This document shows, in pieces, positions 48,001-51,000 of a stretch of 64,000 bases of DNA. Within the stretch, counting starts at the first letter, position 1. Every line of letters starts with the position of its first letter. The stretch is from the sequence record KP682389. One strand, given 5' to 3'. Position numbers: made by a program. This stretch comes from Escherichia phage PA45.

Positions 48001-51000
48001 GGTCCTGGTTATTAATACATCAGTATATGATTAGTTGAAGCGAGTCTTTAATATTCATTTAAAATGTCTAAAAAGATGTATTATTAAAAAGTTTAGCGTG
48101 TTATCTGAATACAGGATATCTTAAATGAAGAGTATAGCAACACTGGTTGTGTGTGCAATCTCCGGGATTGCCTGTGTAAATTTATCTGCACATGCAGCAG
48201 AAGGAGAGCATACAATTTCTCTGGGGTATGCGCACTTTCAGTTTCCGGGACTGAAGGATTTTGTAAAGGATGCGACTGCTCATAACAGGGAGACTTTCAG
48301 TCATTTCGTCAACAGAAACTACTTTTCTTCATTGGGCGAATATACAGATGGTCGGGTCAGTGGATATGAAGGCAAGGATAAAAATCCACAGGGCATTAAT
48401 ATCAGGTATCGCTACGAGATAACGGATGATTTTGGCGTTATCACCTCTTTTACATGGACGCGTTCTCTCACTAACTCACAGACATTTATTGATGTGCAGT
48501 CAGCCGATCATACCAGGAAGATTAAGAATCCGGCAGCTTCTGCCAGAACGGATATCAGGGCGAATTACTGGAGTCTGTTAGCGGGGCCTTCATGGCGGGT
48601 TAATCAGTACATGAGTTTATATGCGATGGCAGGGATGGGCGTTGCTAAAGTTAGCGCTGACCTGAAAATTAAGGACAATATTAACAGTAGTGGCGGATTT
48701 TCTGAAAGCAACAGCACGAAAAAAACCTCCCTTGCGTGGGCTGCAGGTGCACAGTTTAACCTGAATGAGAGTGTTACACTGGATGTGGCTTACGAAGGTT
48801 CCGGCTCTGGCGACTGGCGCACGAGTGGCGTTACTGCTGGCATTGGCCTGAAATTCTGACCTGTATCCGGTAACCGTTTACTACCCGCTGTGATGGCGGG
48901 TTTTTTATTGCCCGTACAGGGCAAAAACCGTAAATTATGCGTGGGTGCCTTTCGGCTGATGGCTGGAGGGTGAACCTGAAGGCCTGATGTGGAAAGGCCC
49001 CGAGTCAACTTAACGTTAACCCGAGGCCCTAACACTTCGTACCTTAAGCAAGTAGAAGGTTAGCGCCTCTCTGTAAAAGGAGTCAAGCGCTATGTCGCAA
49101 AAATCGCTTATCACCGTCACAATTTGCATGACGGTTATCTTCACCATCTGGATGTTGCACGGTTCACTGTGTGAGTTCCGGCTGAATTTGTGGGGAGCGG
49201 AGTTTGCGGCGTTCTTACAGTGTAAGCAGTAGGAAAACCGCGACGGGGACGAGAGTCCCCGTCAACTGGTTGCTGAGGTTCAGCCGATATGGCACCCGTT
49301 TCAGGTGAGAGAATGAACGATAAAATTCTCTGGTATATGCAGCGTGTTGTGAGAAATTCCCGCAACCCTGAATTTATGAATGAAGTTAAAGACGCCTGCC
49401 TTAAAAAGCAGGCGTTTTGTTTTGAGGCACCTGATGGCTTTTTGGTGCTGCGTTCTGTGCTCAGTGCTGATGGTATCCCTTATGTTCTGGTGTTGCTGGG
49501 CGTGTGTACGGGGAGTAACAGCGTTGAGCGTTACCTGCCGGAGGTGAAGACATTAACCCATCTGGCTGGCGGACGCTGGGCTGAGTTCCATACGGCAAGG
49601 CGGGGATTTATCCGGCTGGGAAAACGACTGGGCTTTGAGCGAATGCCGGATGATGAGGATGGCTTCATGGTGTTCAGGATAGCGGTCTGACTGCTACAGT
49701 TTTCATCATTGTGTTTAAACCAACATTGTAATTCACATTCTGACCCTGCTCCGGCAGGGTTTTTTGTTATCCAGGGGGCCATTATGGGTGGAAGTAAAGG
49801 CGGTGGTGATACCAAAGTAAAACCAACAGCAGCGCAAATAGCACAGGAAGAAGTGGCCTGGAAAGGGTGGCAGGATTACAAAAATATCCTCCGCCCGGCT
49901 GAAGATAACTTCATGGAAAAGGTCGATGACCTGAACAGTGAGCAGCAGTACGACAATATTGCTGGCACCACAAATCTGGGGTATCAGAAACAGTTTGGCG
50001 AAGCACGGAAGGAGCTTGCGGGTAATCTTGCTCAGTCCGGCGTTGACCCATCCAGTGGTCGTTTTAATGCGGTAATGAATGCGAACCAGAGTGACCAGGT
50101 AACCGGGCAGATTGACACAACCACACGGGGGCAGGTATCGCAGGCAGATAAGTATGTTGCCGGGCTACAGGATGTTGCTGCTCTCGGTTCTGGTCAGAAG
50201 GCGGATGCGTTACAGAGTTTTAACTCTCTGGCAGACAGCAGTCTGGCAAAAGCTAAATCGGATGCACAGGCGGCGTTTACGAAACAGCAGGGGCGAGCCT
50301 CTCTTGTTGGCGCTGGTCTGGGTGCGGCAGGTGCATATGCGATGCATAAGGCTGGCGGTAGCGGAGGAAGTGGCGGTGCTAAAACACCTGGCACCGGCGC
50401 TAATGCCATTCAGCATCAGGCTCAGAACTGGAGACTGTAATTATGGAGTATGGCAAATACGAAACTCTCGCAAGGGCTGGTTATTCAGGAGCAGACCGCC
50501 CACAGGGTGACTGGCAGACGTCAGCAGCGCTGACACGCCAACAATACGACGACTGGCGAACCAGATATTTGCCCCGCGTGGCAAGGCTGGCTGACCTTGG
50601 GGAGAACAACAGTCTGATGAATGCACAGCTTGCACGGGTGGGAGGCCTTGCCACTTCCAGTCTCCGTACAGCGCAGATGGCGCAGGATAACCAGATGGCG
50701 AGATACGGGGTAAACCGCCCGGATAATCCCGACAGTAATACGCTGGGGTTACGTAATGCCCTGGCAATTGCTGGCGCGAAAAATGGTATCCGTGAAGCCG
50801 AACAGGATCGCCAGATGAATATTCTGACGGGGGCTTCTGCACCGGCAAGACAGAAACTGAGTGTTGGCGGCCAACTGGTGGCAGCGTAAGGGGGCAATAT
50901 GGGATACGGTTTACTGGATATTGCAAATCAGTCGCGGCGTGAGGCATTACAGGGAATAAGTGACGCAGACAGACGACGTGAAGAAATTGAGGCTGCGAAC

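Follow-up and report, generated by a model that had tools for sequence, protein, structure and literature searches.

A second, divergent hok locus in a 933W/Sp5-type Stx2a phage: a likely mobile type I toxin–antitoxin cassette

Though hokW-sokW is the only characterised hok system of the 933W/Sp5 phage type (Takada et al. 2021, PMC8621323), we find a second, divergent hok locus in the same phage, within a stretch of 64,000 nucleotides from Escherichia phage PA45 (sequence record KP682389), here called the window. The window is a Shiga toxin 2a (Stx2a) phage of the 933W/Sp5 type and matches the PA52 record KP682392.1 at identical coordinates. The new locus, which we call locus 2, encodes a toxin of 46 residues at 49092-49232 on the plus strand and is likely to be a complete, autonomous hok/sok-type type I toxin–antitoxin cassette, carried as a moron in the gap that separates lom from the next late gene, and separate from hokW-sokW. 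The cassette (48908-49297, about 390 bp) would comprise a promoter, a hok messenger RNA (mRNA), the coding sequence (CDS), a 3′ hairpin and a predicted antisense RNA. The gene itself is a known, catalogued member of the Hok family and thus of low novelty; what our analysis adds is the distinction of the locus from hokW-sokW, the anatomy of the cassette with the predicted antisense RNA, its mobility, and its lack of mok.

The open reading frame (ORF) runs from ATG 49092 to TAG 49230-49232, and its product, MSQKSLITVTICMTVIFTIWMLHGSLCEFRLNLWGAEFAAFLQCKQ, is a Hok/Gef family peptide under purifying selection. A sequence-only reading of the window had proposed a Hok-like frame of 46 codons at this place, and profile searches bear it out: the peptide matches Pfam HOK_GEF (PF01848) with 33.2 bits against a gathering cut-off of 22 (E = 4e-8, profile positions 6-42 of 42) and PHROG 251 with E = 2.8e-24. 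In an alignment with HokW, HokC, HokE and a HokA-cluster peptide, residues M1, C12, T14, C27, E28 and E37 are invariant and L26 is present; together these equate to M1, C16, T18, L30, C31, E32 and E41 of a published Hok survey (Escalera-Maurer et al., bioRxiv 10.1101/2025.08.07.668861). The N-terminal hydrophobic helix gives a 17-residue hydropathy peak of 2.05 over residues ~5-21. Across 16 diverged copies with 77-92% nucleotide identity, the set to which counts of copies refer below, the 46-codon frame is always intact, and both alternative frames have stops in every copy. Among six divergent alleles, all 15 pairs have a ratio of nonsynonymous to synonymous substitution (dN/dS, by Nei-Gojobori) of 0.10-0.63, with dS reaching as far as saturation, so the frame is kept in related phages under purifying selection. 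A chance small ORF is excluded by the Pfam E value together with this conservation.

The frame had also been described as unannotated. This is correct for the PA52 record, which has no annotation across 48860-49288, and incorrect for RefSeq, where the identical protein WP_000078907.1 is named ‘Hok/Gef family protein’, and for several sister phage records, where the labels are ‘MokW-like host killing’, ‘small toxic polypeptide’ and ‘host toxic membrane protein’. The best NCBIfam match is the HokA equivalog NF007290, at 38.4 bits far under the cut-off of 89, and the peptide resembles HokA but is not HokA. The two have in common a W in the transmembrane helix, SLCE and AAFL, and both have a hard-coded second Cys near the C-terminus, so that Y-to-C editing by TadA is not needed; however, the locus 2 peptide is 4 residues shorter, and the two fall into different 60%-identity clusters in bioRxiv 10.1101/2025.08.07.668861 (93 for HokA, 72 for locus 2).

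The published locus lies elsewhere in the same phage. The primers of Takada et al. imply a HokW of 51 residues (MKQQKAM...DYESEK) and map to 61892-62047 on the minus strand of the window; the hokW-sokW locus as a whole covers 61892-62216 (minus strand), with the hokW CDS at 61892-62047, the leader extending to 62216, and sokW running 62096->62166. The hokW leader matches Rfam RF01794 (sok / hok leader) with 113.5 bits, above the gathering score, and whole-window Rfam scans give exactly two matches to this family, hokW and locus 2. The primers, the Rfam position at 61.9-62.2 kb on the minus strand, and an amino-acid identity of 37% between the locus 2 peptide and HokW rule out that the ORF is the published one. 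In the GenBank record of 933W, mokW, hokW and sokW are annotated only at the hokW site, and Takada et al. (PMC8621323) never mention a second hok locus. As locus 2 is 100% identical in VT2-Sakai, their hokW-sokW deletion mutant retained it. Within a phage collection, locus 2 occurs in 197 records and hokW in 77.

An element-by-element alignment shows how far the two loci correspond. Common to both are a promoter with its -10 box 6 nt before GGGUGC, the pairing of the mRNA ends through tac and fbi elements, the AAGGAG-N9-AUG arrangement, the GAAA(A/G)GCCCC motif, the CUUAAC...GAGGC hairpin and an antisense -10 box TAACCT. They differ in peptide length (51 residues in HokW, 46 in locus 2), in strand and in place; hokW has an in-frame mokW extension of 70 residues where locus 2 has none, and the recognition tails of sokW and of the locus 2 antisense RNA are unrelated. 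The comparison with hok/mok/sok (parB) of plasmid R1 is similar: both encode a Hok/Gef peptide, both have an mRNA closed by pairing of its 5′ and 3′ ends and a 3′ hairpin, and R1 makes a short antisense RNA in cis, composed of a 5′ tail and a hairpin, as predicted for locus 2. R1, however, is plasmid-borne with mok coupled to hok, whereas locus 2 is prophage-borne and without a mok frame.

Toxicity of the peptide on induced expression, which would be expected if the frame encodes a membrane toxin as had been proposed, is supported by published work. Table S2 of Escalera-Maurer et al. (bioRxiv 10.1101/2025.08.07.668861) lists a peptide identical to that of locus 2 as 72_1589 (plasmid LRP157). 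Of the 45 CDSs in the panel of that study, 42 were toxic upon arabinose induction; the only non-toxic constructs were 19_179, 60_1482 and 69_1540, and 72_1589 is thus in the set reported toxic. Three of the loci compared here (L003, L016 and L014) carry the alleles 72_1621, 79_1563 and 82_1289, also in that toxicity panel (bioRxiv 10.1101/2025.08.07.668861). Members of clusters 72, 79 and 82 stand in the panel as ‘high-abundance cluster’ representatives. That survey differs from the present analysis in treating the CDS only: mok, Sok and the mRNA were not analysed and the phage is not discussed. In the survey supplements, whose alignments are gapped and of whose Table S1 a part was covered, the leader sequence of locus 2 gave no match that would place this mRNA in T1TAdb.

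The predicted promoter of the hok mRNA lies at 48908-48936 on the plus strand, with a -35 box TTGCCC (48908-13), a 17-nt spacer and a -10 box TAAATT (48931-36), 6 nt before G 48943. The pattern TTGCNN-17-TAnAnT-6-GGG is kept in all 16 copies while the spacer sequence varies, and homology across genomic contexts begins exactly at the sense -35. From the Rfam match, the end of homology and the fold, we predict a full-length hok-type mRNA of 355 nt at 48943-49297 (plus strand). RF01794 matches 48943-49105 end to end (model 1-157) with 35.6 bits, E being 7e-6 in a 2-kb search and 2.4e-4 in a search of the whole window. The 355-nt RNA has a minimum free energy of -153.7 kcal/mol (z = -6.3). In the consensus helices obtained with RNAalifold 99.1% of cells are paired, compared to 33-43% when the partners are slid, and 7 pairs show compensatory changes, compared to 0-1 in the slid controls.

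The ends of this RNA pair with one another much as in other hok mRNAs. A tac-like 5′ element, GGGUGCCUUUCGGCUG (48943-48958, plus strand), pairs with a fbi-like 3′ element, CAGCCGAUAUGGCACCC (49281-49297, plus strand), through two 6-bp helices, 48944-49 with 49291-96 and 48952-57 with 49282-87, both kept in all 16 copies; 98-100% of cells are paired, and the changes are all G-C to G-U or U-A to U-G exchanges, or the reverse, on the 3′ side. In the closed mRNA a leader segment within the antisense-target region (49043-49055, plus strand) is predicted to pair over a long range with a segment of the 3′ untranslated region (49266-49278, plus strand), and 3 of the 10 pairs of this helix are compensatory (e.g., GC:12/AU:4 and AU:9/GC:6). 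The Shine-Dalgarno (SD) sequence AAGGAG (49077-49082, plus strand) lies 9 nt upstream of the ATG, with the same AAGGAG-N9-ATG geometry as in hokW; the consensus fold has it paired to CCUCU at 49066-49070, with the AUG region paired to UUGCGGCGU in the 3′ part of the coding region. The suggestion of a leader folding as in hok mRNAs is therefore borne out by the consensus fold and the tac/fbi pairing, though not its description as about 130 nt long and GC-rich: the leader is 149 nt (48943-49091) and, at 52% G+C, not notably GC-rich.

Downstream of the coding region, the perfect 9-bp stem-loop that had been noticed at 49242-49263 (plus strand; GACGGGGAC-GAGA-GTCCCCGTC) is confirmed, and 4 of its 9 pairs show compensatory changes across copies. 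In R1 the hok mRNA has the closed tac/fbi design, and a hairpin ends and protects the processed form; weakening the last stem-loop of the truncated mRNA led to degradation by RNase and abolished toxicity (PMC9841398). By analogy the stem-loop of locus 2 would correspond to that hairpin, and we predict it to be the 3′ end and protector of a processed mRNA, though processing itself is presumed. When the 3′ ~30 nt were removed in silico, the 5′ end folded onto 48990-49001 in a hairpin of -30.7 kcal/mol, and the truncation raised the unpaired probability of the antisense-target region in all 16 copies. Read on the minus strand (49264->49241), the 3′ hairpin, with CGGTTTTCC after it, scores as terminator-like; in this direction it could stop leftward transcripts entering the cassette.

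An antisense partner had been considered not identifiable by eye, but a predicted one can be identified through homology to sokW. Its promoter would lie at 49057-49086 on the minus strand, with a -35 box TTGACT (49086->49081), an 18-nt spacer and a -10 box TAACCT (49062->49057); the pattern TTGNNN-17/18-TAACCT is present in all 16 copies and in hokW. To obtain a promoter-less sokW, Takada et al. (PMC8621323) used primers YO-421/422, which change the sense sequence from TAGGTTAG to CCGGCTCG, or TAACCT to GAGCCG on the antisense strand, so the -10 box of locus 2 is identical to one mutated experimentally. To place the ends of the RNA we used its homology to sokW, which is annotated with 71 nt in the 933W record, begins at the 7th nucleotide after TAACCT and ends at GGGGCUUUU. 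This gives a predicted sok-like RNA of ~58 nt (49050->48993, minus strand), whose 5′ tail, single-stranded over ~20 nt, leads into a GC-rich hairpin (49029->48995) and UUU. The hairpin is more stable than its sense counterpart in 17 of 17 sequences (mean -17.6 compared to -9.9 kcal/mol), because several pairs are G.U on the antisense strand only. Locus 2 is thus predicted to encode, in cis, a sok-like antisense RNA with its own promoter overlapping the leader. Since duplexes predicted for the 5′ tails are weaker between locus 2 and sokW (-14 and -16.5 kcal/mol) than between cognate partners (-33 and -39 kcal/mol), the two systems should not cross-talk.

The most marked departure from the R1 arrangement is the absence of mok. 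When ATG, GTG and TTG starts were considered in three frames of the 16 copies, no mok frame had a start, length or overlap that was conserved. Where the canonical mok start would be there is ACU, CAU or AUA, in-frame stops precede hok, and in the window every upstream frame is closed before the hok SD or AUG. An ORF ending at an invariant TAG within AGGTTAG occurs in 15 of the 16 copies, with a variable start that makes it a 3-codon GTG mini-ORF or 24-34 codons long. The mini-ORF (GTG-xxx-GGT-TAG, in 11 of 16 copies) has its TAG inside the antisense -10, 14 nt upstream of the hok SD; in the window (49052-49063) GTA replaces its GTG, and a 24-codon GTG frame (48989-49063) ends at the same TAG. 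We do not put this ORF forward as a mok, as it can be explained by chance and the fixed TAG.

In R1, Hok cannot be synthesised unless mok is translated up to the hok SD (PMC9841398). For locus 2, translation must be possible, because the peptide is under selection; we infer that it starts directly at the hok SD and that antisense control acts via decay or an upstream site. Such control could be decay driven by RNase III, or occupation of an upstream ribosome standby region. The antitoxin RNA IstR-1 acts on tisB in the latter manner, by occupying an upstream ribosome standby region. By its sequence, the locus would work like hok/sok yet depart from the canonical three-gene definition of hok/mok/sok. 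A more speculative idea, to which we attach little confidence, is that the cassette represents a mok-less clade of hok, with antisense control lacking a coupled leader ORF, and possibly redundant with hokW-sokW in phages of the 933W/Sp5 type.

The cassette has a distribution of its own. BLAST against 5,426 complete E. coli genomes found the region in ~1,750; copies outside 933W-type phages match from ~48923 to 49297, and the end at 49297 recurs in >1000 E. coli genomes. In a multiple alignment homology runs from an invariant ATTGC at 48907 to GGCACCC at 49297, and the flanks are unrelated. The copies lie after lom in 933W-type phages, after ogr in P2-like prophages and phages (P88, Chuche), between J and the tail-fibre gene in a lambda-like prophage, and beside the gene for type-B L31 in an O157 island. 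These are typical positions for morons, and prophages are enriched in hok genes; together these points weaken the view that a type I toxin in a late operon would be unusual. Two copies, in the Stx prophage of strain 07_3337 (L006, 401-831) and in phage phi367 (L007, 401-831), have flanks and leader near-identical to the window with the coding part of hok replaced by a divergent ‘MPQKTIIV...’ allele, which indicates recombination inside the cassette.

Several observations weigh against our interpretation. The RF01794 score of locus 2 is below the gathering score of 59, so that it is not reported at threshold, and the antisense hairpin is trailed by only three U residues. A generic sigma-70 scan reported no promoter on either strand; it missed both predicted promoters because each matches 8 of 12 consensus positions and the scan threshold was 9, and the case for both promoters is one of homology and conservation only. 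On the plus strand there is no intrinsic terminator right after 49297, the next being at 49397-49414 inside the following ORF, and the 3′ end of the mRNA is therefore undefined. The gains in SD accessibility upon truncation are modest, and as mok is missing, though mandatory in R1, the native mRNA might be poorly translated. The reported toxicity is that of an overexpressed CDS with a synthetic SD rather than of the native locus, whose mRNA, antisense RNA and peptide are predicted from the sequence. Finally, hok loci on the chromosomes of K-12 and related strains have been reported not to mediate post-segregational killing. Among published papers, the one on Sp5 late-gene knockouts does not mention the gene, a ciprofloxacin transcriptome paper mentions only hokE, and an EDL933 RNA-seq/Ribo-seq paper lists only sok above the Rfam threshold, and therefore gives no read-out for locus 2.

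We are fairly confident, by homology to the known systems, of the way the locus would be regulated. The full-length mRNA would be closed and inert, until slow trimming of its 3′ end back to the hairpin at 49242-49263 removed the fbi element; the 5′ end would then refold on 48990-49001, opening the leader. While it is supplied, the short-lived antisense RNA would pair with 48993-49050 and trigger decay, probably via RNase III. Should the supply stop, Hok would be made and the inner membrane depolarised. This could happen on loss of the prophage, on shut-off of host transcription by another phage, or on induction of the prophage, with rightward late transcription then running counter to the antisense promoter.

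The most likely core role of such a system is selfish maintenance or exclusion on behalf of the carrier element, a role favoured because the cassette moves among prophages of unrelated types as well as an island. In this phage an added, HokW-like contribution to lysis at induction is plausible by analogy, given the co-orientation with the late operon and the precedent of HokW, which in Sp5 is produced ahead of the endolysin upon induction and raises progeny twofold (PMC8621323). That this is instead the main role, locus 2 firing at induction as a lysis-timing accessory whose peptide helps the holin and endolysin once late transcription swamps or blocks the antisense RNA, is a possibility worth keeping in mind, though on balance we doubt it. 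It would fit with the orientation of the cassette, which is that of the late operon just past the lom terminator, with the doubling of phage release by HokW, and with the merely partial phenotype of the hokW-sokW deletion in a mutant that still carried locus 2. However, the cassette lies outside any late operon in P2-like prophages and in the O157 island, so late-operon placement is not a conserved property.

It is improbable that locus 2 is a translationally silent relic of a hok gene, left without any translation of its native mRNA through the loss of mok, as was suggested for the inactive chromosomal hok loci of K-12. Such a view could call on the lack of a conserved mok frame where R1 requires translation of mok up to the hok SD, and on the failure of chromosomal hokA/B/C loci to mediate post-segregational killing. 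A dead gene, though, would not keep its frame, promoters, structure and toxicity: dN/dS is below 1 with dS saturated, the exact length of 46 codons is retained in all 16 copies, both promoters are conserved, as are the SD and the structure, with compensatory changes, the cassette is moving into prophages of unrelated types, and the peptide is still toxic. We give practically no credence to the finding being simply the published hokW-sokW or a small ORF arisen by chance. Both loci belong to one phage, and their peptides share the PHROG label ‘MokW-like host killing’, but hokW, at 61892-62047, is on the other strand, and its 51-residue product is only 37% identical. A maintenance or exclusion cassette separate from hokW-sokW thus remains our preferred interpretation.

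In the window, the toxin ORF sits in the orientation of the late operon between the terminator of the Ail/Lom gene and the next late ORF. The Ail/Lom gene (48125-48859; Pfam Ail_Lom, 113 bits) is the left neighbour, and its intrinsic terminator (48883-48901, plus strand), a terminator-like site followed by TTTTTTATT, adjoins the cassette on the left. Homology among cassette copies from different contexts sets in just downstream of this terminator. The next late ORF is annotated at 49289-49690 (plus strand), which places its ATG 49289 within the fbi element. Its true start is probably ATG 49313, preceded by GGTGAGAGA, because the alignment to PHROG 610 begins only at residue 9 and the start in the phi367 record is 24 nt downstream.

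Other RNA elements were also found in the window. Three identical matches to the ALIL pseudoknot, of 121.5 bits each, lie at 8814-8930 (plus strand), 26521-26637 (minus strand) and 28725-28841 (plus strand); as ALIL is a frameshift signal of the IS3 family, they mean that the phage genome has three copies of an insertion sequence element. At 23582-23841 a match to STnc100 (207.7 bits, plus strand) adjoins matches to anti-sRNAs (directed against small RNAs) of the AsxR/AgvB type (minus strand; 88.1 and 40.9 bits), and three transfer RNA genes lie at 21925-22173. Matches to isrK, the C4 antisense RNA and the a1/b1 target, plus the lambda cIII thermoregulator element, are found at 18478-18676 (plus strand) and 7898-7956 (minus strand); those to isrK, C4 and a1/b1 indicate an antisense immunity module of the P1/P7 type.

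Phages of the 933W/Sp5 type thus have two hok-type loci rather than one. In the only functional study hokW-sokW was deleted and locus 2 left in place, so that a larger effect could have been masked, and the partial phenotypes may understate the contribution of Hok. Redundancy of the two loci, if it exists, would explain why phage release was only halved when hokW-sokW alone was deleted. That a clade under selection lacks mok is a small exception to the R1 paradigm. As Stx2 phages of this type carry Shiga toxin, the timing of lysis and the stability of the prophage bear on toxin release.

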